From NCBI GenBank assembly GCA_023662905.1, contig JAMPIJ010000006.1:426-64425 (forward strand): a stretch of 64,000 nucleotides of DNA. The letters run 5' to 3'. This DNA is from Fusobacterium sp. GTDB taxonomy: Bacteria > Cyanobacteriota > Vampirovibrionia > Gastranaerophilales > Gastranaerophilaceae. The notes beneath the pieces were generated by a model that saw only the letters and a list, made by a program, of their open reading frames with translations, made no database searches and was not told the DNA's origin. The translations under genes were made by a program, and so were the position numbers. Positions 12,775 through 63,776 of this stretch are shown here, in pieces (within the stretch, counting starts at the first letter, position 1; each line of letters starts with the position of its first letter).

Positions 12775-14271
12775 TTAATTAAAACCTTTTATGACAGTGC
12801 GTCCTTTATCGTTAGGGTCACGTTTTAAAGCGTTAAACATTTTGTCAAAATCTTCCATATCTGCGGCGTCTTTGTATTCATAAATAGCGTTCAGGCAGGC
12901 GTTATGAAGAATTGAGGACATGTCAGCTGGAGAAAGTCCTTTTAATTTTTTAGCCAGTTCATCAGAATGTTCTAAAAGTTCGGAGCCAATCGGTCGATCT
13001 TGAAGAATTTTTTCAACAATATCTTTTGCTTCGCCCGCTGTAGGGAGACCGAGTTTAATATGCTTATCAAGACGACCGGAACGTTTTACTGCCGGATCCA
13101 AATCATCAGGATTGTTAGTTGCACCGACAATAATTATCCCCTTTTGAGCAGAATTATTCATAACCATTAAAAGGGCATTAATATCATCCTTTTTCCAGTC
13201 GGTCTGACAGTTTTTTCTATTCATCGCAATGGAATCAAGTTCATCAAGTATCAAAATACTAGGTTCACCAGTCAATTTGTATTGCTTTTCAAGATTTTCA
13301 AACACTGTTTTTAATTCGTTTTGCGTTTTATAAGCCCCGCTGTCGCCGACATTTGCAAGATTAATTTCATAAAGTTTATAACCGGTTTCGGCCGCAATAG
13401 CTTTCATAATATAGGTTTTGCCGCACCCTGGAGGGCCTGAGAGCAGGAAGCCACTCGGACGATTTAGTTTATTTGCTATAATTTTATCGCGAAAATCTTT
13501 ATTCCAAGGTTTTAAAATAAATTCATTAACATCTTTTTTAACTTGAAACATGCCCCCAACTTCATCTAAGGACTTAGGGTCATTTTCATTAATTGGGACT
13601 TCATATGAACTCAATGCTTCTTTTAGTTCGGAGCTGTTCTTAGAAGAACAATTACCACCGATTGTGTAAACCGACGATGAACCTTTCAACTTCTGAATTT
13701 CATCAACAACACCTGCAAGGCCAGCCTCATCGGCAAATTTAGCATACATATCCAGATTAATATGCTCTATATTATTCTTACAATCAGGACAATTCAACAA
13801 TGGAAACACAACTTCCGGACAATATGCATCTATTGAATAAATCAACATGTCCTGATTAGAAGCACCGTTCATAATCTCAAAATTAGGATGTGATACAACC
13901 TTGTCTGCTAAACTTATAAGGTTATCCCAGTCTTTATCCTCTGAGCCTATATTACCGAATTCATCAGTTATAAGCCCGAGCAGGCAATTTTTAGATGTGT
14001 TGTCCTCAATAATGCAATTCGGATTCCAATCGTCAGTATCCAACCTGTCAATCAAATTACAAGCGTCTTCAAAAGATTTATTTTTAATAAATCCAATAAG
14101 TTTATTTGAATTTTCCTCACGTGTTTCAGCGTCTGAGATTTTCTTAGCCTGTCCGAACGATATTGTATCGCATGGTAAATTATACGAATATTGTAACGAC
14201 GGAACATTTGCCTGAGGCCTAGCTGCACATTTATTATTAACAGAGTAATTTAAAATTGACGAGATTCTCAT
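12775..14271 (-). CDS. AAA+ ATPase (classic clade) with about 250-aa unknown N-terminal region
   Basis: Walker A GPPGCGKTY, Walker B ILILDELDS, SRH ATNNPDDLDPAVKRSGRLD. The N-terminus carries the shared MRI...SFG leader. Confidence 0.8.
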   Translation of the reverse strand: MRISSILNYSVNNKCAARPQANVPSLQYSYNLPCDTISFGQAKKISDAETREENSNKLIGFIKNKSFEDACNLIDRLDTDDWNPNCIIEDNTSKNCLLGLITDEFGNIGSEDKDWDNLISLADKVVSHPNFEIMNGASNQDMLIYSIDAYCPEVVFPLLNCPDCKNNIEHINLDMYAKFADEAGLAGVVDEIQKLKGSSSVYTIGGNCSSKNSSELKEALSSYEVPINENDPKSLDEVGGMFQVKKDVNEFILKPWNKDFRDKIIANKLNRPSGFLLSGPPGCGKTYIMKAIAAETGYKLYEINLANVGDSGAYKTQNELKTVFENLEKQYKLTGEPSILILDELDSIAMNRKNCQTDWKKDDINALLMVMNNSAQKGIIIVGATNNPDDLDPAVKRSGRLDKHIKLGLPTAGEAKDIVEKILQDRPIGSELLEHSDELAKKLKGLSPADMSSILHNACLNAIYEYKDAADMEDFDKMFNALKRDPNDKGRTVIKGFN

Positions 14272-14306
14272 AGTTACAGGTTAAAAACCCGTAAAAAAAT
14301 TTTTTG

Positions 14307-14927
14307 CTAGTGCGTCAAATAAACATGCATAATCTGCGCTGTCTTTTTATTAACATTAGAACCTTTCATACGCACTAATTTTTCCTGATTAGGAATAATT
14401 ACGCAGAATAAACCGCAATCTTTTTGCAGGTTGAAGACAGCTCTATCGTGAGAATTTTTTATATTTTCTTCTGTCAAATTCCAAACGCTTTCACGCGGAA
14501 GAAAAACAACGTCAGGGGAATTTGCAAAATGAGTTCTTGTTTTTGAAAACTCTTTCAAAAACGCTTCTACATCACTACCGTGTTCGCTTGTGACGTAAAC
14601 AATGACCTTTTTATTCGTATTCAAATAAGGACTAATTTTTTTAACCTTAGTGAGTGCAAGCATTTGCGTTCCAGAAATCGGAACTTCTTTAATATAACTT
14701 CTGGCAGTATTGATATCAATAGGAGTTTCAGTCTTCTTAACATCTTTCAGATGTTCAAACTCGTTAACCACAACCGGTTCTTCTTGAACTTTTTCTTCAA
14801 TTTTATTATCGGAATCCGCAAACCTTAAAAACGAGTTCATAATATCCGGCTGCTGCCTGAATGCACCAATCAAAAGAAATAATATTAGCATTATAAATGC
14901 AATGTTTGTAAATGTTTTATTACCCAT
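14307..14927 (-). CDS. Membrane-anchored hypothetical protein
   Basis: 206 aa with N-terminal TM FTNIAFIMLILFLLIGAF. No recognised family. Confidence 0.5.
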   Translation of the reverse strand: MGNKTFTNIAFIMLILFLLIGAFRQQPDIMNSFLRFADSDNKIEEKVQEEPVVVNEFEHLKDVKKTETPIDINTARSYIKEVPISGTQMLALTKVKKISPYLNTNKKVIVYVTSEHGSDVEAFLKEFSKTRTHFANSPDVVFLPRESVWNLTEENIKNSHDRAVFNLQKDCGLFCVIIPNQEKLVRMKGSNVNKKTAQIMHVYLTH

Positions 14928-15096
14928 TCTTACTGCCTCAAAATTCTCACTATAACGCCATTATACAATTAATAGGGAAAATTCAATCAATCAAATTAAG
15001 TAAATTTTGAATTAAAAATCGTTACATACAGTTTAAAATTAAAAATATTTAGCTTATACTAAGGTTGAGTTTATATCAGTATTTGGAGAATTAAGA

Positions 15097-16473
15097 ATGT
15101 ATAACGTCGCTATTATCGGTGCAGGGCCTGCGGGAATATTTTCCGCTCTTGAGATTATGAAACTTAGACCGGATTGGAAAGTTATTCTCGTAGAAAAAGG
15201 CGAAAAGATTGAAAAAAGAAAATGCCTTTTGCGTGAAGGATTTGCAAAATGTCCTAACTGCAAAAAATGCGGACTTCTTTGCGGTTGGGGAGGCGCAGGC
15301 GCGTTTTCTGACGGCAAATTAACCCTGACACCTGATGTAGGCGGCCACCTTGTTGATTATATGGAACGCCAAAAGGTTGAAGATTTGATTGATTACTCTG
15401 ACAAACTTTACCTTGAGTACGGCGCAACTGAAGAAGTTTTCGGTACTGATATGAAAACTTTCTCAGAACTTGAAAGACAGGCTGCGCTTGCAGAACTTAA
15501 ACTTGTTCACTCACCAGTCCGCCACCTTGGAACAGAAAGAAGCCTTGATGTTCTTAAAAATATGCAAGATGATTTAGATGGTAAAATTACCATTCTTAAC
15601 AACGTTGCGGCAAAAAGCTTAATTGTTGAATGCGGTCAGGTTAAAGGTATTGAACTTGATAACGGCCAAACAATCTGCGCTGAATATACAATCATTGCCC
15701 CTGGTAGAGAAGGCGCTGACTGGCTTACACAAGAATTTGCAAAAAATAAAATCGGTATGGTTAACAACGCAGTTGATGTAGGTGTTCGTGTTGAACTTCC
15801 AGCACCTGTGTTTGAACCGTTAACCTCAAAACTTTATGAATCAAAATTAATCTATCATGCACCAACATTCGGCGATGAAGTAAGAACTTTCTGTATGAAC
15901 CCGAATGGTGAAGTTGTTCAGGAAAACTACAACGGTATCGCAACCGTTAACGGCCACAGCTACGCTAATATGAAAACTAAAAATACAAACTTTGCACTTC
16001 TTGTTAGCGAACGCTTCACAGAACCGTTCAAAGAACCTATCGCTTACGGCCAACATATTGCAAGACTTGCAAACATGTTAGGCGGCGGAATTCTGGTTCA
16101 AAGATTCGGCGACCTGCTTGACGGAAGACGTTCAACTCCTGAAAGAATTAAATCAAGCATTATCGAACCAACGCTTACCTGTGCAACCCCTGGGGATTTG
16201 AGCCTTGTAATCCCTTACAGACAGTTGACCAGTATTAAAGAAATGCTCTTCGCTCTCGACAAAATCGCACCGGGAACAGCTTCAAGATACACACTTCTTT
16301 ACGGTATTGAAGTTAAATTCTACTCAGCAAGAGTAAAATTAACCGACGAACTTGAAACAGAAGGCGTTAAAAACTTATTCACAATCGGCGATGGTGCAGG
16401 GGTCACAAGAGGCCTCATCCAAGCATCAGCTTCCGGTGTTCATGTTGCAAGAACCATCTGTGAGAGAGGATAG
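15097..16473 (+). CDS. FAD-dependent oxidoreductase (COG2509-like NAD(FAD)-utilising dehydrogenase)
   Basis: N-terminal Rossmann motif VAIIGAGPAGIFSA, C-terminal GDGAGVTRGL. 458 aa. Confidence 0.75.
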   Translation: MYNVAIIGAGPAGIFSALEIMKLRPDWKVILVEKGEKIEKRKCLLREGFAKCPNCKKCGLLCGWGGAGAFSDGKLTLTPDVGGHLVDYMERQKVEDLIDYSDKLYLEYGATEEVFGTDMKTFSELERQAALAELKLVHSPVRHLGTERSLDVLKNMQDDLDGKITILNNVAAKSLIVECGQVKGIELDNGQTICAEYTIIAPGREGADWLTQEFAKNKIGMVNNAVDVGVRVELPAPVFEPLTSKLYESKLIYHAPTFGDEVRTFCMNPNGEVVQENYNGIATVNGHSYANMKTKNTNFALLVSERFTEPFKEPIAYGQHIARLANMLGGGILVQRFGDLLDGRRSTPERIKSSIIEPTLTCATPGDLSLVIPYRQLTSIKEMLFALDKIAPGTASRYTLLYGIEVKFYSARVKLTDELETEGVKNLFTIGDGAGVTRGLIQASASGVHVARTICERG

Positions 16474-17394
16474 CTTAATCTCACGCGCGGCTTCACGTCG
16501 AGCGTCTGAATATATGACTTTAAATTCTGGGTGCGAATCCCAGAATTTTTTATGCACAGCCGCAACAACACGATGCTCCTGTGCTGTCAATGGCGCACCA
16601 GAAGATTGTTTTTTCAATACTGCTCTTTGATAACCAGTTAAGCTTTCAAAATATTTAGATTTGGCCTCTCTAATTTGCTCACATTTTGCCCAAGCCAATT
16701 TAGAAATAGCTGAAACCTCTTCACGCTTTTCAGGATTTTCGGCATAATGACGAACCATAGCTGCTGCTTGCTTAGCACGGGCTTCCGGCGTTTTGTTAGC
16801 GATATTTGCAAGCGCTAAATTTCTCATACAAATTCCCAAATGTCTGCGGGTCGCATCTGCAGTTTTTTGGTTGCCGGCTTCATCTGAATTTTTCAAAAGA
16901 GTTAGATAATTATGGTCGGGTTTTGGAATATTCAACATTTCACAAAGTTTCGCCACCGGTGCGCGGCCGCTGAAACCATAAGTCTTCGCGATTTCTTCCT
17001 GCGGCATGCCTGACCAGACTTTTTTCAATAAATCAAGCGAAAAATCACCTAAAGGCATTTTTTCCTGAATAGTCTTCACTAAACGCGGAACTTTTTCAGC
17101 AACAGCAGGAAGCTCAATAACATCATCAAATTCACGAAATAATTTCTTTGCCCTATCAAGAGTTTTGCTATCCATTAACGGCTTATAAACCCTTTCATGT
17201 AAATCTTTCAGCGTCGGCATCTCCGTTTTCGCAGCTTTCTCCGCTTCAACTCTCATTCGTTTGGGCAACAAATGCGCACGATTTTCCAATATATATTTTA
17301 AATTTATATCCTTTGCTGCGCCAAAATTAACCGGCTGCTGCGGTTTTGACGCCTTATTGTTATAGTAACTAAATCCAATTAAACCTACTTGCAT
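16426..17394 (-). CDS. Hypothetical protein with shared N-terminal leader
   Basis: 322 aa, no recognised family. N-terminus MQVGLIGFSYYNNKASKPQQPVNFGAAK. Confidence 0.55.
   Translation of the reverse strand: MQVGLIGFSYYNNKASKPQQPVNFGAAKDINLKYILENRAHLLPKRMRVEAEKAAKTEMPTLKDLHERVYKPLMDSKTLDRAKKLFREFDDVIELPAVAEKVPRLVKTIQEKMPLGDFSLDLLKKVWSGMPQEEIAKTYGFSGRAPVAKLCEMLNIPKPDHNYLTLLKNSDEAGNQKTADATRRHLGICMRNLALANIANKTPEARAKQAAAMVRHYAENPEKREEVSAISKLAWAKCEQIREAKSKYFESLTGYQRAVLKKQSSGAPLTAQEHRVVAAVHKKFWDSHPEFKVIYSDARREAAREIKLSSLTDGSCNMNTGS
16525..16551 (+). terminator. Terminator for the FAD oxidoreductase gene, embedded in the 3' end of the convergent ORF
   Basis: TTCTGGG/CCCAGAA stem followed by TTTTTT. 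Confidence 0.5.
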
Positions 17395-17460
17395 AAATCT
17401 GTAAAGTGCGCTGAAAAACAGAATTGCGCAGAAAACAGGATTTATTACAAAAATTTAACA

Positions 17461-18243
17461 TTATTCGGTAATTATAGAAAGGTTCATAAACTCAATATCA
17501 TCGTAGTCGATATGTGCAGTTTGCGCCATATTTCTGCCGGTCTTGATTGTAATCTCGTTATCCATTCCCTTTCTGACCAAATTTTTAGGAAGTTCAAACC
17601 TTTGCGAATCTCCGTTGAGTTCAATACTTGCGATTTTAATACCATTTAAGAAAATTTCCGGTGGGCTTGCGTATGAAGTTTTAACGCGGTTTTGCCCCAT
17701 TTTTTGTGCCATTAAACTATCAATTCCGATGATGGAACCGATTATAAGAATATATTTTGATGCTGCGCTTCCGGCAGAAATTTTGAAATTCTGCGAGTAA
17801 AAAGAACCGCTGGCCTTACCGTGAAACTCAGAGCAATTGGCAGAATTCGGCGAAAAACTGTCGTCGCCGAGATGGTACCAGCCGGAAGTCACAATAATAT
17901 CATCCTCAGCGCTTTTTTCAATCGAAACGACCATTGGTTTTTCTGTTGCAGTCTTGTCAACAGTAATTGAATACGGACGATAGCCCTCTTTCTCTATAGA
18001 CAAAATTGATGGCGAATGCAGTTTAGCCGAAAGATTAAACGCGCCGTTTTTATCGGTAAAAGTTGTATAATTTTCTTTAGGCAAAGTGATTTTAACGTTT
18101 TCAACAGGCTGGTTCGTCTGCGAATCCAGAATAATAGAACTTGTTCCCATGCCGGTTTTCTCAACGCCGCCCTCAAACACTGCGCAAAACACCGGTTCGC
18201 TCAAAAATATAGCGCTCAAAAAGATTATAAATAACTTATACAT
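17461..18243 (-). CDS. Secreted protein with carboxypeptidase-regulatory-like (Ig-like) domain
   Basis: Signal peptide MYKLFIIFLSAIFLSEPVFCA. ILDSQTNQPVENVKITL...TFTDKNGAFNL matches the CarboxypepD_reg pattern. Confidence 0.55.
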   Translation of the reverse strand: MYKLFIIFLSAIFLSEPVFCAVFEGGVEKTGMGTSSIILDSQTNQPVENVKITLPKENYTTFTDKNGAFNLSAKLHSPSILSIEKEGYRPYSITVDKTATEKPMVVSIEKSAEDDIIVTSGWYHLGDDSFSPNSANCSEFHGKASGSFYSQNFKISAGSAASKYILIIGSIIGIDSLMAQKMGQNRVKTSYASPPEIFLNGIKIASIELNGDSQRFELPKNLVRKGMDNEITIKTGRNMAQTAHIDYDDIEFMNLSIITE

Positions 18244-18322
18244 ATCCGTTAACCCTCTGACAAAATATTAGAAAATCTACACATTATATAAATCCGATTA
18301 TTGATTAATAAGGTTAGACAAT

Positions 18323-18351
18323 AAAAAACAGCGTTCAGATTTGAACGCTGT
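18323..18351 (-). terminator. Terminator after the 743-aa membrane protein gene
   Basis: 10-bp stem ACAGCGTTCA/TGAACGCTGT followed, on the minus strand, by TTTTTT. Confidence 0.65.
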
Positions 18352-18422
18352 AATCTCTCTTTTGTATATGTTATTTTGTAAGGAATTTTTTCTTCACCTT
18401 CCCCGTTCAATTGCAAGGTGCA

Positions 18423-20654
18423 TCATTTATTGGCTAGAAACCTGTTTTTAAATTGATTTTGGGAAGCCAAGAATGAATTATAATCAGCCGCTTGCGGAGC
18501 TTGTTTTTCCATTTTATGAACAACTCTTTTTTGTCCTTTTGGCACTGCCATATCAACATATTTTTTGATTTCGACTCTAACGTCTGACACCTGTTTTTCT
18601 TTACCGGTCAAATCGCGAATCATATTTTTATTTCTGTCATATTTGAAGCCATAAATCTTGTTGGCTTTGATATCTTCAAGAACTTTTTCATCCAATGCTT
18701 TGATTGTATCTAAATCCGCAGAGGCGAAGTCGTCGTGCATATAGCGTTTTGCAATTTCTTGGAATTTTTCTTTGCTTACGTCAGCCTTGGTCATTTTTTC
18801 GCAGTGTTTTGCAAGCCAAATCATAAACGCAGGTACAAACAATACTATTGACGCTGCTCCGAATGTGCTGTTAAGCATTTTCGCTTTTTTAACAAGTTTG
18901 TTGTCAGGGTTTTTCAAGATATCAACGATTGCGTCTACGTGTTTAGAATTTTTTGTCTTCTTGAATACTTCTTCAATTTCGGCGTTTTTGCAGTGTTCAA
19001 GTTCTTTGCCCATAACTTTTTCTGCGTGTTGTTTAATTTCAGGGTCTATAGCAAGCATTCTCTTGAGGTTGCCGCCGTTTTCCTGAACGAATTCGAAGAA
19101 GCCGTTGATTCCGTCTTTGTAATCCTGAATATTGCTGTATTTTGCAGTAATTTCGCCGCTCTTCAACACGCCGATACCGCCGGTTGGAGAGAAGTAATTT
19201 TTGAATTTATGCATAAACGATTTTTCGTGATCGTCCGGTGTAACGTTGAGTGCAAGCCCAGAAACACCCGCAAAGATTTTTGAGAAACCGCGTGAAAGTG
19301 CGTTCGCACCAAACAGAATTGACGCAAAGCTGAACAAATCTCTTGTCCAAATCTCTTTTCTATCATGATGATCTGTTGAATTTGCAAGTCTTGTAGGCAA
19401 GCAGAAACCAAATAACAATGCAAGTGTTGAATTTGTAGTCATTGAAGCGCCATCAAATTCAAAGAAATCAGACGCTTTTTTGAGATGTTTATTTTTCATC
19501 ACTTTTTCAGCAACATTAGTGAAAACTTCTTTTTTACCTGAGAAGCTTACTTTATCTGCATTATTAGCATTATTAGCATTATTATTATTTTTTGTTTCTT
19601 CTACAGCCGGAGTATGTTCTTCCAAACCTGCCATACCAGGGTTTTTGCCGTCCAAGCCCATACTGTAGATTTTTGGAATCATAAAGTAGAAGCCAACAAC
19701 TGCCAGCCACATACCAACGTTAGTCAACGCACGTGAACCCATTCTGCGTGTTGTATGCCCTTTGATAAATTCAGCAAGATTTCCGTTTTTATTTTTGTCA
19801 ACGAACTGCTTCGTATGCTCAACGGTATCTTTTGTATAATCAAGGAGTTTGTCTGAAAATGCAGAGAATGAAGCAGAAATTTTAGACGCTTTTGCGTCCT
19901 GCGGTTGTAATTCTGCTACCCAATGAGAAGCAGCCGGTGCTGTATATCGTTTTTTAATAGCGATAAATTCATTAGAAAGTTTTGCCATCAAATCTTCTTT
20001 AGAACCCTCAACGACTTTACCTGAAAGATTTTTAAAGAAGCCTTTAGATTTAGCATCTCTGATTGCAGTCAATTCATCAGCGAATTTTTTTGCAGTAGCG
20101 TTGAGTTCTTCTTCAGGCATAGCGCCGGCGGTAGAAGTTTTCAACACATTTTTATACACCTGTTCATAGAATTCAGTCTGAGTTTTAGCAGTATCGGCAA
20201 GATTAACATTTTTGCCAGAAGCATATTTACCAAATTCACCGCCAAAAGCTTTAATAAAATCAACAGGAACATTATTTGCAGTTCCGGAATATTTTTTAAC
20301 GAAATAAAGGATAGATGCAGGGATTACGAAAACGCTAGGGCCTGAAAGGCACTCTCGGATACCCTCACGCTTGGCAAACTCCCAGTTCAAGTGTCCGGTT
20401 TCCTCTTTATTACGGTTAAGTCCCTCGTAAATACGAGGTGCAACCATACCGCAGCAATCCTGCGCCATAAAAGAAGCAACAAATCCGCCGCGTTCAATAC
20501 CATCCATAAACATAACGACAGCATTAGCCGCGTTACCGAACGCTACGTTCTGGCCGTTTTGTTGACTTAAATTATACTGAGGTTGTTTCCTTACTTCTTT
20601 ATTATTGTCAGAAGTACGATTGTTTAACTTTACACTAACTGGTTTTACTGACAT
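18423..20654 (-). CDS. Large multi-pass membrane protein, hypothetical, with shared N-terminal leader
   Basis: 743 aa with several hydrophobic helices (e.g. VGMWLAVVGFYFMIPKI, AASIVLFVPAFMIWLA). N/A-rich linker NNNNANNANNAD. N-terminus MSVKPVSVKLNNR...NVAFGNAAN. Confidence 0.6.
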   Translation of the reverse strand: MSVKPVSVKLNNRTSDNNKEVRKQPQYNLSQQNGQNVAFGNAANAVVMFMDGIERGGFVASFMAQDCCGMVAPRIYEGLNRNKEETGHLNWEFAKREGIRECLSGPSVFVIPASILYFVKKYSGTANNVPVDFIKAFGGEFGKYASGKNVNLADTAKTQTEFYEQVYKNVLKTSTAGAMPEEELNATAKKFADELTAIRDAKSKGFFKNLSGKVVEGSKEDLMAKLSNEFIAIKKRYTAPAASHWVAELQPQDAKASKISASFSAFSDKLLDYTKDTVEHTKQFVDKNKNGNLAEFIKGHTTRRMGSRALTNVGMWLAVVGFYFMIPKIYSMGLDGKNPGMAGLEEHTPAVEETKNNNNANNANNADKVSFSGKKEVFTNVAEKVMKNKHLKKASDFFEFDGASMTTNSTLALLFGFCLPTRLANSTDHHDRKEIWTRDLFSFASILFGANALSRGFSKIFAGVSGLALNVTPDDHEKSFMHKFKNYFSPTGGIGVLKSGEITAKYSNIQDYKDGINGFFEFVQENGGNLKRMLAIDPEIKQHAEKVMGKELEHCKNAEIEEVFKKTKNSKHVDAIVDILKNPDNKLVKKAKMLNSTFGAASIVLFVPAFMIWLAKHCEKMTKADVSKEKFQEIAKRYMHDDFASADLDTIKALDEKVLEDIKANKIYGFKYDRNKNMIRDLTGKEKQVSDVRVEIKKYVDMAVPKGQKRVVHKMEKQAPQAADYNSFLASQNQFKNRFLANK

Positions 20655-21068
20655 TTCCCTACCAAATATACATATACACTATCTTATAAAGTTCTGCGCA
20701 GAATATTTATTGCTAATTTTTTTAATAAATTTAAAAAAATTTTACAAAACGCAATTCTGCACAGCGTGCAAATAATTGTAACTATTACAATTATAATTTG
20801 CAATACCTTTTACTACAATCTTAACAAAAGATTACAAAAGGATATAAATTAATTAATCCGCCAGAGGGTTGATTTTTTATTTTTTTATAATTAAATATAG
20901 ATATAATTTTTATTTGCATCTTGGATATAAATAAGGGAACTTGTGTTGAGGAGAAGTTTTTCATTTTAAGAAATGTAAATTTTTTAAAATTAGTTCTTAG
21001 TAATTAGCAAAAAAAAATTATCAGAAGTTATTTGCAGACATAGAGGTTTTTTCCTAAAGGAGTTGTGT

Positions 21069-24000
21069 ATGAGAATACAAGCTATTGCCCCATCAAACGT
21101 GGTTAATTACAGAAATTCAAACAGAACAAAAGTTAATAATAATTCTGTTCAACCTTATTTCCATGATAACCTGAGGACAATGGCGTTTACCGGAAACAAC
21201 CCAAATCACGGGATTTTTGTTGGCGCAGAAATTAAAGGGCTTCAGCAAAAAGGCGGCGTTGCAACCGTTATGTTTGATTATGCAAGCATTCCAGGAATGG
21301 AAGAAGCCATTGTTTTGCCATACCACAACGCACAACTTACTTATGACTCCAAAGGCAAATACGCGGGCGAAGTTAAGATTCACAGATTTCCAGAGGGCCA
21401 CGAACATGCCGGAAAACCTTTCTGGACAGGCGTAGATTTAGACAAAACAAGCTTAAAAGAAGTTTATTCCGACCCTAAAAAATATATTCTTCTTGATGAA
21501 CTCTCAACAATCAAAGCACCTTGGGATTCAACGCAGGAAGCGACATTACTCAGGGTTCACGATAAAGGTGCAATCAGAGGTATTAACCACGATGTATTTC
21601 TTATCTACTCTGACACCCTCGGAACAATGAAAGAACCTTATGCAGACGGTGCTTATATGTCAAAAACCGCCAAAGAAGCTGTTGCTGACGCCGCTAAAAG
21701 AAAATTTGAACCATCTCCGTATGCAGAGTTCAACAGATTATTTGTAGAATTTAAAGATTCAATCATAAACAATACAAGAACTAGCGACGGCACCACTTTC
21801 AGCCCGATGACAGTCAGCTGTTCGGATTCACAAACCGCTTATATCCCGTACTATATGAGAGCAAAAAACATACAGGATATGAACCCGATTTATACGCTCC
21901 ACAACGGCGGCGATGGTTACACCGGTCAAATCGACGGCAGAACTATGTTCCAAAACTTACTCCTTGCCGAAGACGAAACCACAAGAAATAATGCAATCAA
22001 AAACTTACTTGATAACAAAGAATTCTTACAACACAACCTCAACGGAACAACGGATGAGTTTTTTAAACAATTTATGCCTCAACTGGTTGACGCGAGCGGA
22101 AGCTTCAACCCTACATTGATTCCATTTATGTACGCTCAAAAAGATGACCGCTACGTAAAAGGAGTTAACACTGTTTCAAAAGGTTACGCAGAGGGAATGG
22201 CCTACAACGAAGCGATTCCATCAGGTATTCGCCCATTCTTCAAATCATTACTTAAAGACGGCATGGCTGACGGTATTCTGAACCCTATGAACGACGGTTC
22301 ATTCTCACCATTTGCAGGCAAAGGCGGCTATTTACCAGGGTATAACAAAGAATTCACGGTAAAATATCCGGACGGCCATGAAGAAGTCATAAAACCTTTC
22401 CGCTTACTTGACGAAAAATTGTTCAAAAACGCAGACGGAACACCTAATGTTACAGAAGCGTCTTTAAAACATTATGACGAAGTTAAATTAGACAACCAGA
22501 TTAACTTCTTCAAACGTGTACTCGGAACTTACGACGCCGACGGCTTCGCCGGCGAAATCGGCAACTTGAAAGGTGAAAAGGTCAGAAACCTTTTGATCAA
22601 CGGCCTTGATGGAAAAGACGTTGAATTAATCGGCCACGTTTCACCTGAAATCTTACAAAAATTTGAAGACGCAAAAGCAGGAAAGGGCAAAGCTCCAAAA
22701 GTTTTCGTAAGCTGGGGCCGTATTGACGATCAAAAAGCGCTCGATTCTGTAATGAAAGCGTTTGCGAAGTTCAAAGAAGCAAACCCTGACGGCGTTTTAG
22801 TTTTAGGCGGCCCGTCACTTGTTGACGCAGAGGGCAATGTTGCGGACTGCACAAAGAAAACTATTGATTTAGTTAATAAATACACAAACTCTAAAGAACT
22901 CAAGGGCAGCATAGTATTTATGAACGGCTTTGCGCCAAACAAAGTTCTTGCCGCAATCGCTGACGCAGCAGTATTCCCGTCACGCTTTGCACCGTGCGAA
23001 CTAACCGACCTTGAAAGTATGAAATACTTCTTGAGAGTTATCGCATCAAACTGTCAGGGTCTTGCAGACAAAAACTTCGACGCAACAATGGACGGCGCCG
23101 AAAATGCAACCGGTTACAAAACAATTCACGAATTCTTCGGAATCAACCAGACAACAATCGAAAACGACAACGAAATATCAAAAATTTTCCGGGAAGGTAT
23201 AGCAAACGAACGCCTGACAGGTTTCAATAAACTCTACGCAGACGCAGAAAAAGAATACCTTGCAAGAACAGGCAACAGCAATCTTTTATACCGCAAGATG
23301 ATTGCCGACAATATGGCCTCTGAATTATCAGGAACCTTAGACGACAATGCGATGAAAAGCGTAAACACCATCGTACAAAAACTCGCACTCAGCGAAGCAG
23401 AAACAACTAAACTCAAAGGACTTCCTATTACCGACGCGGCAGATAGAGCATTGATTGCAAAATTTGCAGAAAACAAAAAAGTATCACCGAAAGAAGTCGA
23501 AAAACTTACACAATTAATCAATGCAAGCACTCTCGAAGCAGGCGAAAAAACAAGATTTACACAACTTCTTGACGGAACAACTCAAGCCAGCGTTGAAAAA
23601 GATCTTTTCAACTTACTGTTCAACAAAGAAAACCTCAAAGATAAGAAAATCAAACTTACAGGCCCTGCGATTACCGAAGAAGGCCTCAATACAATCAGAA
23701 AATACCTTGCAGATACAACACAGGAAAACAGACATCTCCTTGATGATAACCTAATTGAAAAAGGTATTATCGACGAAGAACAATTGAAAGCCGCGAAAAG
23801 AATCTTCGACTACGATCCGGTAATCCACTACATGCACGACACACCAAAATTCCAGAATAAATACAAAGCGTTAATCGAACGCTGCCGTAACGAAATTATG
23901 GAAAAAGAAATTTTCAACTGTATGCAGCGTGCCGCAAACGAAACACCGGAAATGCGCCTAACAATGCTAAGAAACCACGTTCGCCTTAATTCAAGTTGGG

Positions 24001-24407
24001 ACGGCAACGCAAACCTAACAGGTATTACACGTGAAAACGGAACTCGTAAAGTTTCATCATACTACCTTTACAATGAAATGTTCAGCCGCGAGAGAACAGC
24101 TGAACAAAAGAAAAAACCGTTCGTAAACTATCTACAAAACTTACTTGAAAAAATCAAACCAAAACCGCAAAAAACAAATCAAAAAACATACAATGACGCC
24201 ACAGATGCGATTCAGGAAGCGGCGAAAACCGCAAGCGGCATGTCAAAAGGCTTAAAAATCGCACTCGGCGCAGGTGCAGCGATTCTCGCTCTCGGCGGCG
24301 GATACTACGCAATGAACAAATCCGGCACAAAATCCAACGACCACGGAGATACATTCAAACCTGCTGCACAGCCGGCTTTGCAAAACCCTTATCTGGCAAC
24401 CAAATAA
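21069..24407 (+). CDS. Glycogen/starch-synthase-like GT5 glycosyltransferase with long C-terminal extension and TM anchor
   Basis: The ATG at 21069 follows AGGAG. GAEIKGLQQKGGVATVM resembles the K-x-GGL motif, and PSRFAPCELTDLESMKY resembles PSRFEPCGL. About 400 extra C-terminal residues end in TM GLKIALGAGAAILALGGGYYA. Confidence 0.65.
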   Translation: MRIQAIAPSNVVNYRNSNRTKVNNNSVQPYFHDNLRTMAFTGNNPNHGIFVGAEIKGLQQKGGVATVMFDYASIPGMEEAIVLPYHNAQLTYDSKGKYAGEVKIHRFPEGHEHAGKPFWTGVDLDKTSLKEVYSDPKKYILLDELSTIKAPWDSTQEATLLRVHDKGAIRGINHDVFLIYSDTLGTMKEPYADGAYMSKTAKEAVADAAKRKFEPSPYAEFNRLFVEFKDSIINNTRTSDGTTFSPMTVSCSDSQTAYIPYYMRAKNIQDMNPIYTLHNGGDGYTGQIDGRTMFQNLLLAEDETTRNNAIKNLLDNKEFLQHNLNGTTDEFFKQFMPQLVDASGSFNPTLIPFMYAQKDDRYVKGVNTVSKGYAEGMAYNEAIPSGIRPFFKSLLKDGMADGILNPMNDGSFSPFAGKGGYLPGYNKEFTVKYPDGHEEVIKPFRLLDEKLFKNADGTPNVTEASLKHYDEVKLDNQINFFKRVLGTYDADGFAGEIGNLKGEKVRNLLINGLDGKDVELIGHVSPEILQKFEDAKAGKGKAPKVFVSWGRIDDQKALDSVMKAFAKFKEANPDGVLVLGGPSLVDAEGNVADCTKKTIDLVNKYTNSKELKGSIVFMNGFAPNKVLAAIADAAVFPSRFAPCELTDLESMKYFLRVIASNCQGLADKNFDATMDGAENATGYKTIHEFFGINQTTIENDNEISKIFREGIANERLTGFNKLYADAEKEYLARTGNSNLLYRKMIADNMASELSGTLDDNAMKSVNTIVQKLALSEAETTKLKGLPITDAADRALIAKFAENKKVSPKEVEKLTQLINASTLEAGEKTRFTQLLDGTTQASVEKDLFNLLFNKENLKDKKIKLTGPAITEEGLNTIRKYLADTTQENRHLLDDNLIEKGIIDEEQLKAAKRIFDYDPVIHYMHDTPKFQNKYKALIERCRNEIMEKEIFNCMQRAANETPEMRLTMLRNHVRLNSSWDGNANLTGITRENGTRKVSSYYLYNEMFSRERTAEQKKKPFVNYLQNLLEKIKPKPQKTNQKTYNDATDAIQEAAKTASGMSKGLKIALGAGAAILALGGGYYAMNKSGTKSNDHGDTFKPAAQPALQNPYLATK

Positions 24408-60929: not shown

Positions 60930-61767
60930 ATACCCATTTTTGATGAAATATTTCAGCCGCGAAAATGTTTCTAAAATTTCGCACTGCATTCTGTTTTTCG
61001 GAAGCGATGCGCCATCACAATACGAACTTGCACTCGAAGTCGCGCGGCTTTTGAACTGCAAAGAAGACGGCGCACCGGATTGCGAATGCCTAAACTGCAA
61101 ATGGATTAGAGAAAACCAACACCCTGCGGTCAGAACCGTTTCACGCGTCGACTACAAACCAACCGACGATAAAACCAAAACCGTAATTTCCGTCCGCCAA
61201 ACTCAGGAAATCAAAAAAGACCTTATGGTAACCTCAGATTACCACCGCGTCATAATCTTCTGCGACAAGGACGACGACGGAAACGTTCAGGGTATAAATT
61301 ACCGTGTTTTTCAGGAGGAAGCCGCAAACTCGCTTCTTAAAACCTTTGAAGAACCACCGTCAAACACGACTTTCATTTTTCTCACCAAAGACAAAACCGA
61401 TATGATTTCGACAATTGTTTCACGCTCACAATGTTTCTTTGTCCCTGCACAAATGGAAGAAAACCGTGACTTTTCGTTTGTTTCAAGCATAATGGAAGGC
61501 TACATGTCGCGCGACAAAAACGATGTATGGAACTTCAAAGACGAACTTCTTGCGATAATCAAAGAACACGGCTTCGACACAACAATTAATCAGGTCGAAA
61601 GCTATCTAAATTCACTCCTAAAAAGCAATTACCAGAACGGCCAGCTTCGCATAAAACTTCTTAACGACCTTAAAGCTGTAAGTTTAGCAAAAAAACAGGC
61701 GGCATTAGACATCCAAGCCCCGAGCGTCATCGAAAATCTATCCTTTGCACTATTCAATATCAATTAG
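60910..61767 (+). CDS. holB: DNA polymerase III subunit delta prime
   Basis: Degenerate P-loop region ILFFGSDAPSQYELA, zinc-module-like C-x-C-x2-C, LLKTFEEPP and the SRC-type motif IVSRSQCF. Confidence 0.7.
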   Translation: MLSLYDKYPFLMKYFSRENVSKISHCILFFGSDAPSQYELALEVARLLNCKEDGAPDCECLNCKWIRENQHPAVRTVSRVDYKPTDDKTKTVISVRQTQEIKKDLMVTSDYHRVIIFCDKDDDGNVQGINYRVFQEEAANSLLKTFEEPPSNTTFIFLTKDKTDMISTIVSRSQCFFVPAQMEENRDFSFVSSIMEGYMSRDKNDVWNFKDELLAIIKEHGFDTTINQVESYLNSLLKSNYQNGQLRIKLLNDLKAVSLAKKQAALDIQAPSVIENLSFALFNIN

Positions 61768-61777
61768 GAGCGCTAAT

Positions 61778-62725
61778 TTGAAAATCGAAAACAATAATCT
61801 GGAAAACGAGATTACATCCATTGAACTACTAGACACCTGTGTGAAATTCTTTTTTAAAAATAGAACAATGGATATAATCTGCCACTATTCTGATTTTAAA
61901 AGTATACTCTTAACTATTAATCATTCAGCCTTTTTGATTGACCAACCAATGTCGGATAAGGCAGTATTTCATCTTATTATAGAATTCACATTACCTGACG
62001 ATAGATATATTAAAATCACACACGATATAATTTATAATGATGATGGGTATAATATAGCAGAAGCTCTTGCATTTAGAAAAATATACAAAATCATTGATTA
62101 CGTATTAAAATGCCCAAATTTCGCCCATACTATAGATATAAAACAAGAAGAACCGGTCGATTTTGAGGAACTTATTGAGAAAGACAGAAAATTTATTGAA
62201 GAAAGCTCTGAATTCTCAACACTTCCACAAGATACACAAGAATGGATTATTGAGCGATATCAACTAGAGAAGGAAGCAGCTAAATTGCAGCAAAGTATGA
62301 GCTTTCTATTCTCAACCCATGTTGAAGAAAACTCACGTAAAAACTATACAAAGAATATCAATCGCTACATAGCACAAAAACGTTACTTCCCTGAATTTAA
62401 AAGGTTCTGTCCTCAAGAACGCCATGGCGCTGCAATTTATCTAGACATTTTAATAACAGTATCGTGTGCATTTCTGTTTTGCGGCGGCCTTTCAGAAGCA
62501 CAGATGACAACATTTGGAGAAGTTATGTTGTATCTCGGCGGCATAGGTTTACTTATAACATTATATATGGACTTCGCACTCTTAAAAGATGAAATCTTTG
62601 ATTTCAAAAATCCTCTGGACAACTCTTCTCAACTGGTGTTAGTTTGGATATTACCGGTTTTAAAATTTATTATTTTAACCCCAATATTTTATCAAGTTTT
62701 AAAAGCCTATTCTTATATCCATTGA
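61778..62725 (+). CDS. Hypothetical membrane protein
   Basis: The TTG at 61778 lies 7 nt after AGGAG and after the holB stop. C-terminal TM segments (ITVSCAFLFCGGL, LYLGGIGLLITLYM, LVWILPVLKFIILTPIF). Confidence 0.5.
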   Translation: MKIENNNLENEITSIELLDTCVKFFFKNRTMDIICHYSDFKSILLTINHSAFLIDQPMSDKAVFHLIIEFTLPDDRYIKITHDIIYNDDGYNIAEALAFRKIYKIIDYVLKCPNFAHTIDIKQEEPVDFEELIEKDRKFIEESSEFSTLPQDTQEWIIERYQLEKEAAKLQQSMSFLFSTHVEENSRKNYTKNINRYIAQKRYFPEFKRFCPQERHGAAIYLDILITVSCAFLFCGGLSEAQMTTFGEVMLYLGGIGLLITLYMDFALLKDEIFDFKNPLDNSSQLVLVWILPVLKFIILTPIFYQVLKAYSYIH

Positions 62726-63485: not shown

Positions 63486-63776
63486 ATGATTTCAGCAGTA
63501 GACAACAACAAAAACCAATACTTTGAACGTGTCGGCGCTGTCAGTATGCAGGCGCAACGAGGTTATCCACCCGAATTTCTTCAAGACCTGCAAAAGAAAA
63601 CAGGCGGATATGCCACCGGCCGCGTTGACAAAACTTTCGGAAGCCTTTTGACTTACGGACGCTCAAACGCCAAAAGCGCCAACCCGTTTGATGGAATTGG
63701 CAGCAAAGAATTTAATCTTTCACATCCTAACGTGAAAGACGAAAATACTGCGCAGAAATTCGACTTTATAGCCTGA
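63486..63776 (+). CDS. Hypothetical small protein
   Basis: The ATG at 63486 follows GGAGAGAG. 96 aa. Begins MISAVDNNKNQY. Confidence 0.45.
   Translation: MISAVDNNKNQYFERVGAVSMQAQRGYPPEFLQDLQKKTGGYATGRVDKTFGSLLTYGRSNAKSANPFDGIGSKEFNLSHPNVKDENTAQKFDFIA

Follow-up and report, generated by a model that had tools for sequence, protein, structure and literature searches.

What does it mean when four proteins that do not resemble one another, encoded within 12 kb, begin with the same kind of short leader? This question is raised by a 64,000-nucleotide stretch of DNA (hereafter the window) from a bacterium of the Gastranaerophilaceae, which comprises bases 426-64425 of contig C51 in a metagenome-assembled genome (MAG; here G000) of 54 contigs and 1.74 Mb, with a G+C content of 39.5% and an estimated completeness of 96.8%. 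An original prediction, made from the letters of the window, had read the N-termini of an AAA+ ATPase, a 322-residue protein, a 743-residue protein and a GlgA-like glycosyltransferase as variants of a single leader, and all four quoted N-termini match the open reading frames (ORFs) of the window exactly. The nearest named relatives of the AAA+ ATPase belong to MAGs labelled Candidatus Gastranaerophilus, Gastranaerophilales or Melainabacteria, including the isolate Zag_221, i.e., to non-photosynthetic gut relatives of the cyanobacteria. We find that the leader is a real, conserved and lineage-wide N-terminal tag, undescribed in the papers we searched. Its most likely function is export or sorting, and we tentatively suggest a flagellar-type export apparatus as the machine that would read it.

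The leader is an N-terminal tag found genome-wide

The extent of the leader in G000 was assessed on a crude gene call of 1741 non-overlapping ORFs. When proteins of at least 150 residues were filtered for the pattern [IVLM][ASNT]F[GT] at residues 16-60 after a polar stretch, 12 of 1343 N-termini matched, as against 6 of 7051 windows that begin at an internal methionine, an approximately 10-fold N-terminal enrichment (Fisher p = 1.9e-6); among internal windows in general, 291 of 303,735 matched. A scan with a hidden Markov model (HMM), which had been proposed as a way of finding further members, was run with a 16-residue model of the Phe part of the leader and returned 13 matches of 8.4-13.2 bits from the proteome, every one of them within the first 54 residues, with the runner-up at 4.6 bits. 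Searched against the genome, a 16-residue model of the Phe part recovered 17/17 of its seeds and one junk ORF, and a looser search with two elements gave 12 matches where 3.2 were expected in one version, and 20 where 5.4 were expected in another. Reading through these matches, we curated 21 carriers, with at least four further likely ones, placing the tag on ~1.3% of the proteome. The clustering of the leader in a single 12-kb stretch, as first perceived, is thus not a property of the tag, which occurs genome-wide.

The four-residue motif on its own is only ~2-fold enriched near N-termini, and short junk ORFs from a six-frame translation yield 9 matches of at least 8 bits to the 16-residue model, comparable to those of the carriers. 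It is thus position, composition and motif taken together that carry the signal. The carriers are otherwise dissimilar: in an all-against-all BLASTP of 19 of them the lowest E-value was 0.069, so that the leader does sit on proteins whose mature parts are unrelated, and no model in Pfam or NCBIfam spans it. Shine-Dalgarno matches of at least 4 nucleotides (nt) precede 7/21 carriers, which is weak support for the start codons and insufficient by itself; the question is settled by the conservation of Met1 and the residues behind it in orthologues, and the leaders thereby survive a reassessment of their starts. No description of the tag was found in the papers searched.

The leader has two elements joined by a free, probably disordered spacer

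Across the 21 curated leaders we discerned a common build, consisting of M-[KR]-[IV]-x-x-[IV] at the extreme N-terminus (element 1), an Asn/Gln-rich and acid-poor spacer, and a Phe element (element 2). At residue 3, 16/21 leaders and 394/1544 proteins overall have I, V, L or F, and the opening M[KR][IVL] occurs in 9/21 carriers as against 67/1544 proteins. Relative to the proteome, the spacer is enriched in Asn (3.6-fold), Gln (3.0-fold) and Pro (1.9-fold), and is poor in Glu (0.19-fold), Asp (0.48-fold), Leu (0.54-fold) and Ile (0.44-fold). Its length is free, the Phe falling anywhere from residue 11 to residue 68 (at residue 30 or later in 11/21 leaders, at residue 24 or earlier in 9-10/21). 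Element 2 reads [VILMP]-[SAN]-F, and the residue behind it is G in 17 leaders, K in three, and T or S in the remaining one.

Two features of the leader as first described need amending. The F-G motif holds as regards the Phe, which is invariant, and fails as regards the Gly, whose position is taken by G/A/E in orthologues of the AAA+ ATPase and by G/E/K/S/T in those of the GlgA-like protein; a better statement of the motif is hydrophobic-[S/A/N]-Phe, as a rule with Gly at +1 or +2. The NN[KR] and P/Q elements, which had been taken for fixed features, turned out to be a compositional bias without fixed positions.

The leader is predicted to be intrinsically disordered. In an AlphaFold model of the AAA+ ATPase (5-row alignment; overall predicted local distance difference test score, pLDDT, of 65), residues 1-40 have a pLDDT of 25-27, and values stay under 30 through residue 45. 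In that of the 743-residue protein (66 rows; overall pLDDT 80, predicted template modelling score 0.71), residues 1-40 have a pLDDT of 30-34, and the first helix begins at residue 40, directly behind F39. The low values in both models and the start of the helix suggest that the leader is not packed onto the fold, and that the Phe borders the folded part.

Met1 and the Phe are conserved throughout the family

We next considered the orthologues of the window's carriers. Among six orthologues of the AAA+ ATPase, M1, I3, N8, Y28, Y30, N31 and L32 (the last four forming a Y-x-Y-N-L block), D35 and F39 are invariant. The orthologue of Zag_221 (L004, 3001-4549) cannot be read in a single frame, with 41 stops over the matched range; the gene may be broken or frameshifted, or the assembly may be wrong here. 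In orthologues of the GlgA-like protein from 8 other genomes, 7 of them of other genera, the pattern M-[KR]-[IVL]-x-x-[VI] ... [IVL]-[SAN]-F-x-G is kept, and M1 and F40 are invariant. Here the leaders vary from ~40 to ~85 residues and end ~10 residues ahead of the conserved VFVGAE start of the catalytic domain, bearing out in the alignments that the leader of the synthase precedes that domain. The GlgA-like protein itself is present in 11 of 41 sampled genomes of the family and in 3 of 121 genomes of the class.

The 743-residue protein has the widest representation, with 624 homologues at E <= 1e-5. In the best 120 of these the leader could be parsed in 118, with its Phe at residues 21-56, an N-terminus of the form M-[SV]-V-K-[APS]-[IV] ... 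[VPQ]-[SA]-F-[GTQK]-[GN], and V, I or L as residue 3 in 118/118. M1 and F39 do not vary in an alignment of 66 sequences whose identity falls as low as 42%, and this constancy of the Met and the Phe at such divergence indicates that the translated residues are under selection. A profile of the protein family matches in 24/24 other sampled genomes of the GTDB family and has no match in 6 other families of the class; two further families give weak partial matches, whose N-termini read ...V-S-F-K-G and ...V-Q-F-G-G before the conserved first helix. As to its identity, a Foldseek comparison of the model with the PDB gave nothing at E <= 0.001 (best E = 0.06, TM score at most 0.14), and in the ESM Atlas it falls into unnamed Melainabacteria clusters only. 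In several genera (e.g., in G137, G144, G152 and G153) this family is split into two adjacent ORFs of ~350 and ~330 residues, and a disordered linker at residues 346-373 of the AlphaFold model lies where the split would fall.

Chance matches also brought up leaders in further genera of the family. G035, sampled over 400 kb, gave 4 leader matches where 0.63 were expected, 3 of them convincing; in a 380-400-kb sample of G085, a genome without FlhA, the single match was false. The 16-residue HMM, run on 120 other genomes of the class, gave 5 and 3 matches in the same genus and 0-4 per genome elsewhere, mostly in tiny ORFs or inside proteins. The model is fitted too closely to its own genome for the range of the tag to be mapped with it. 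Polar, acid-poor N-termini without a hydrophobic core were counted in 380-400-kb samples of three genomes that differ in base composition, and are common in G009 (30/327) and G011 (27/314), as against 6/316 in G085. Some proteins of G011 start with M-Q-I-x-P and have, at a later position, [LI]-F-[AS]-S, which may be the tag in a diverged form.

The leader had originally been proposed to be a lineage-specific targeting, processing or assembly tag. That it is lineage-specific, conserved, strictly N-terminal and placed on unrelated proteins stands; as to its role, we infer both that the tag directs export and which machine would read it.

Carrier genes share an upstream DNA element

Ahead of many carrier genes we observed a common DNA element of the pattern TA[GA]CAA[AC]A(3-7), typically (A)CTAGCAAAAAATTTTTT, or in the form TAGCAAAAAA(T)n. 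It lies 28-65 nt before the start codon of 10/21 carriers as against 24/1720 other genes (Fisher p = 6e-13), and is present at 3/4 of the leader genes in the window. The element of the AAA+ ATPase gene is exact in the orthologous loci L001 and L002 and retains its core in L003-L005, the AGCAATAAG core of the 743-residue protein's element is kept ahead of most of the 20 orthologues shown, and in G035, which belongs to another genus, a similar CAAAAAA(T)TTTT element precedes four leader genes. Moreover, at least 4 of the 24 other element-bearing genes encode leader-like N-termini, one of them directly adjoining a known carrier, and thus the element and the leader find each other independently. 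Given that about half of the carrier genes share the element, the carriers probably form one regulon. The element also stands before some housekeeping genes and may therefore be a promoter element of wider use. Within the window, TAGCAAAAAA occurs once more at 61685-61694 (+), 60 nt ahead of a 326-residue ORF (61745-62725; MHYSISIRSANLKIENNN...) without a clear Phe motif.

The carriers include several enzymes, one with an untagged counterpart

The AAA+ ATPase matches the Pfam AAA family (PF00004) at E = 7.8e-31 and has Cdc48/p97, Rix7 and proteasome ATPases as its best Foldseek matches; its N-domain occurs in 3/121 class genomes, all within the genus. The GlgA-like protein scores 37.7 bits to Pfam Glycos_transf_1, 16.7 bits (under the cut-off) to Glyco_transf_5, and 51.5 bits, far under the cut-off, to NCBIfam glgA. 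Beyond the window, one carrier is a second guanylate kinase, whose canonical copy (C11:102486-103019) has no leader. Another is a 5'-nucleotidase/metallophosphatase without a Sec signal, in which the leader directly precedes the catalytic domain; homologues in this normally extracytoplasmic family have a Sec signal at the leader's place. The others include a GH77 4-alpha-glucanotransferase-like (MalQ-like) protein, a CheR-type methyltransferase, an HD/HD-GYP protein, an HNH protein, a protein with a weak RelA/SpoT-like match, one with an HExxH motif, and several all-alpha or tail-anchored orphans. Single hydrophobic segments near the C-terminus were noted in the GH77-like protein (residues 629-647 of 656), a protein of contig C10 (423-441 of 481) and the 743-residue protein (594-612).

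Since the leader replaces the expected Sec site on the 5'-nucleotidase, marks the second of two guanylate kinases and fits no family model, it behaves like a sorting signal.

The leader differs from the known export signals

No leader contains a 19-residue hydrophobic segment, and RR-x-hydrophobic-hydrophobic is present in the first 40 residues of 0/21, in agreement with the initial view that these are neither Sec, lipoprotein nor Tat signals. A Sec signal would show a core of ~7-15 hydrophobic residues behind a basic N-region, and a lipoprotein signal a lipobox Cys. Several other signals that end near a Phe or a Gly were compared and set aside. The leader resembles that of type IV prepilins in being short, polar and ending just before a Phe. 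True prepilins of this genome read [G/A]|F-T-M-A-E followed by a ~20-residue hydrophobic helix, whereas in the leaders S/A/N stands at -1 and a conserved hydrophobic residue at -2, and both the Glu at +5 and the helix are missing; prepilin-type cleavage was rejected. The prepilin pattern occurs in 61 genes of G000 (~3.5% of all; e.g., C24:4162-5160 (-), C47:2458-3387 (-) and C44:100056-100982 (+)), most of which encode paralogues of 310-370 residues with an identical FTMAEILLSLTIIGVVAAITLPSLTGN segment behind a short leader that varies; several sit at the ends of contigs and therefore probably break the assembly.

Double-glycine leaders are likewise N-terminal, devoid of a hydrophobic core and end near a Gly, yet the acidic and Leu positions of their consensus are absent from the tag, whose Phe replaces the first Gly, and the C39 peptidase (PF03412) was not found in the 96.8%-complete genome. 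Processing of the Prp/L27 type was also rejected: the extension of L27 that Prp cleaves ends in F-F|A-x-K-K, and L27 of G000 starts MAHKKG, with no extension. Neither the contractile-injection sheath (PF04984) nor VirB4 (PF03135) was found in G000, and we set aside cargo tags of contractile injection and of type VI and type IV secretion systems.

The effector signals of injectisomes are, like the leader, N-terminal, uncleaved, disordered, polar, acid-poor and placed on unrelated enzymes. They follow a composition rule, and we know of no conserved sequence motif among them; the tag is far more conserved in sequence across unrelated cargo than known type III signals are. The closest likeness is to the signal of early flagellar subunits. 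In PMC8983047, Salmonella FlgD is described as having a hydrophobic signal (2-SIAV-5) and a gate-recognition motif (36-FLTLL-40) that docks at FlhB-C, and in early subunits the hydrophobic signal and the Phe motif are at least 19 and ideally 24-30 residues apart. The leader shares with this signal two short elements in a disordered N-terminus, namely small hydrophobic residues after Met1 and a Phe motif, along with a spacer of free sequence and the lack of a cleavable hydrophobic core. It differs in that its carriers are enzymes and orphans and not axial subunits. The axial proteins of G000 itself (rod proteins, hook-like protein and FliE) have x-[SND]-F-x-x-x-hydrophobic in 6/6 cases, with the Phe at residues 42-53 (that of the hook-like protein is residue 41, counted from an internal Met), and the [S/N]-F half of this motif is common to them and the tag.

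A flagellin-less export apparatus is conserved with or without a true flagellum

G000 encodes the export proteins FliE, FliF, FliH, FlhA, FlhB, FliO, FliP, FliQ and FliR, together with a FliMN-like and a FliJ-like protein, four rod proteins and a hook-like protein; flagellin was not found in this genome. FlhA of this filament-less set (~703-733 bits to the Pfam model) and an FlhB 63-97% identical to that of G000 are each present in 41/41 sampled family genomes. A second FlhA (854-885 bits), an adjoining second FlhB (31-40% identical) and flagellin occur together, in the same 20 of the 41 genomes. A set that is kept in all 41 genomes, beside a true flagellum in 20 and alone in the others, is not simply a decayed flagellum but a conserved paralogous apparatus. 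Incomplete flagellar gene sets were noted by Soo et al., and a 2026 preprint gives ~25% complete flagellar gene sets. On gene content, the 'incomplete flagellum' of Gastranaerophilus is the filament-less set standing alone. Class-wide, one or two FlhA genes are found in 9/11 families, and none in the other two (0/23 and 0/2 genomes).

Leader-bearing GlgA-like genes occur both in genomes with flagellin (G127, G128, G129, G135 and G155) and in genomes without it (G000, G023, G130 and G157), which argues that the tag is independent of the true flagellum.

Non-flagellar cargo is exported by flagellar machines elsewhere, such as the Cia and Fed proteins of Campylobacter and YplA of Yersinia, and Buchnera has filament-less basal bodies. 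The likeness lies in a flagellar-type gate without a filament that is proposed to secrete other proteins; the difference is that here a separate, paralogous set stands beside a full flagellum in 20/41 genomes, and for those systems we know of no cargo tag that is conserved in sequence. The apparatus of G000 also differs from an injectisome in having flagellar-type parts (FliE, rod proteins and FliO).

Two further observations concern the gate proteins. A soluble 492-residue paralogue of FlhA-C (C44:89668-91146 (+); L025:1087-2565), with a small N-domain, a coiled coil and FHIPEP positions 309-653, is present in 40/41 family genomes (not seen in G130) and in 5/5 named relatives. FlhB of G000 (C25:12039-13103, -), next to whose gene lies a sigma-factor-like gene (C25:11330-11995), has N-P-I-H in the place of the N-P-T-H that is present in at least 13 of 30 family orthologues examined, a position that we take to be the autocleavage site of FlhB/SctU.

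Weighing the explanations of the leader

Taken together, these observations lead us to favour, tentatively, the explanation that the leader may be a bipartite export or sorting tag read by the flagellin-less flagellar-type type III export apparatus. Following the bipartite logic of early flagellar subunits, the Phe element would dock the carrier at the export gate, the N-terminal hydrophobic element would enter the gate, and the tag would mark ~21-25 unrelated proteins as cargo. Several findings weigh against this. The apparatus is present in most families of the class, beyond the range in which the leader was seen: in samples of 380-400 kb from genomes of two other families that have the apparatus, there was 1 doubtful leader match in one (G011, family f6) and 0 convincing of 3 in the other (G009, family f5). 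The DNA element of the carriers is absent within 200 nt of each of 8 export-gene clusters, and no linkage of the 743-residue family to export genes was found, the two lying 24-140 kb apart when on the same contig. The leader also departs from the Salmonella signal, since the +4 position of the gate-recognition pattern F-x-x-x-hydrophobic is I/L/V/M/F in 6/21 leaders, about what chance would give, and the Phe at residue 24 or earlier in 9-10/21 leaves little room for the spacing of at least 19 residues measured in Salmonella, a threshold that may not hold here. Finally, most carriers are enzymes acting on cytoplasmic substrates (ATP, GMP, S-adenosylmethionine, cyclic di-GMP (c-di-GMP) and sugar nucleotides), which outside the cell would have no substrate unless they were delivered into another cell. 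A binding model of FlhB-C (14-row alignment) with the GlgA-like leader (9 rows) scored 0.01 and 0.00 and weighs neither way. There is also a bolder version, which we consider unlikely: the filament-less descendant of the flagellum would be a protein-delivery machine that arose independently of the injectisome, with the leader as its export signal and ~25 co-regulated cargo enzymes that, needing cytoplasmic substrates, would work inside another cell.

Alternatively, the tag could be read by some other partner, such as a scaffold, a membrane site or a protease cutting near the Phe, leaving the flagellar-type apparatus uninvolved, a possibility that we take seriously while holding it in some doubt. 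A conserved, N-terminal and disordered tag would suit such a partner as well, as would a regulon-like upstream element that is found on carriers and not on export genes, and the carriers' dependence on cytoplasmic substrates; the C-terminal hydrophobic anchor of several carriers fits membrane-tethered cytoplasmic enzymes, and the predicted structure puts the Phe right where the folded part starts, which would suit a site of processing or docking. However, neither a partner nor a protease came to light as a candidate, nothing ties a docking motif to Met1, where element 1 always begins, and a purely cytoplasmic role would be unusual for the 5'-nucleotidase family. It is rather improbable that the leader is a regulatory element, i.e., a degradation tag or an element of expression or translation that sets the amount of a protein and not its place. 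The disorder and the strict N-terminal position would agree with this, as would the Shine-Dalgarno matches in only 7/21 carriers and the DNA element at 28-65 nt from the start, which implies that 5' untranslated regions are probably short; but an invariant Phe at residues 11-68, preceded by a spacer whose length is free, is unexpected for a translation ramp, and a degradation tag leaves unexplained why the second copy of an enzyme is tagged and the canonical one is not. Cleavage by the prepilin peptidase, or handling by type IV pilus or type II secretion machinery, strikes us as very improbable: some of the 61 pattern genes read ...V-A|F-T-L-A-E, reminiscent of V-A-F-[GT], yet the leaders have S/A/N where real prepilins have G/A at -1, and are without their Glu at +5 and ~20-residue helix. 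We give almost no credence to the notion that there is no tag, only the Asn-rich composition of an AT-rich genome, chance or wrong starts. The modest enrichment of the bare motif, the junk-ORF matches and the weak Shine-Dalgarno support would speak for it; against it stand the controlled enrichment and the independent upstream element that picks the same genes, and the invariance of Met1 and the Phe in orthologues already contradicts it.

The locus in the window

The features of the leader locus are collected in Table 1. The fifth leader that had been suggested, at 63486, is a weak case, since its spacer contains Asp/Glu and its motif is K-T-F-G, with Lys at -2. Two untagged genes lie among the carriers: 14307-14927 (-) encodes a 206-residue protein of no family that has a membrane segment at its N-terminus, and 17461-18243 (-) a 260-residue protein in which a Sec-type signal is combined with a carboxypeptidase-regulatory-like domain.

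Table 1. Leader-bearing genes, their leaders and upstream elements in the window (positions numbered from its first base).
Feature	Position	Strand	Remark
AAA+ ATPase, 498 residues	12775..14271	-	classic-clade AAA domain and genus-specific N-domain
AAA+ ATPase leader, residues 1-40 (MRISSI...DTISFG)	14152..14271	-	
Upstream element TAGCAAAAAA (then TTTTTTT)	14300..14309	-	begins 38 nt before the AAA start codon
322-residue protein	16426..17394	-	without any Pfam or NCBIfam family
322-residue protein leader, residues 1-25 (MQVGLI...PVNFG)	17320..17394	-	
743-residue all-alpha protein	18423..20654	-	without Pfam or NCBIfam family
743-residue protein leader, residues 1-40 (MSVKPV...NVAFG)	20535..20654	-	
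Upstream element TAGCAATAAA	20706..20715	-	begins 61 nt before the start codon of the 743-residue protein
Upstream element TAGCAAAAAA	21005..21014	+	64 nt before the GlgA-like ATG
GlgA-like GT-B glycosyltransferase, 1112 residues	21069..24407	+	long C-terminal extension and C-terminal hydrophobic segment
GlgA-like leader, residues 1-42 (MRIQAI...TMAFTG)	21069..21194	+	start is the ATG at 21069
Fifth candidate (MISAVDNNKNQY...DKTFGS), 96 residues	63486..63776	+	uncertain member

Implications for the Gastranaerophilales

Provided that the tag signals export or sorting, it supplies a sequence rule that lists the whole cargo set of an uncultured lineage widespread in the guts of humans and animals. 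Should the filament-less apparatus indeed read it, the 'incomplete flagella' of Gastranaerophilales would become a testable secretion system with named candidate substrates, and the presence of the paralogous set beside a true flagellum in half of the sampled genomes shifts the reading of this apparatus from a relic to a working machine. Were the cargo delivered into other cells, this would be the first signal of type III secretion to have a recognisable motif in its sequence, and its cargo would act on nucleotides, c-di-GMP, glycogen and methylation. Even if export proves to be the wrong explanation, the leader represents an undescribed unit of cell organisation in these bacteria, a disordered N-terminal tag accompanied by a promoter-proximal DNA element of its own.

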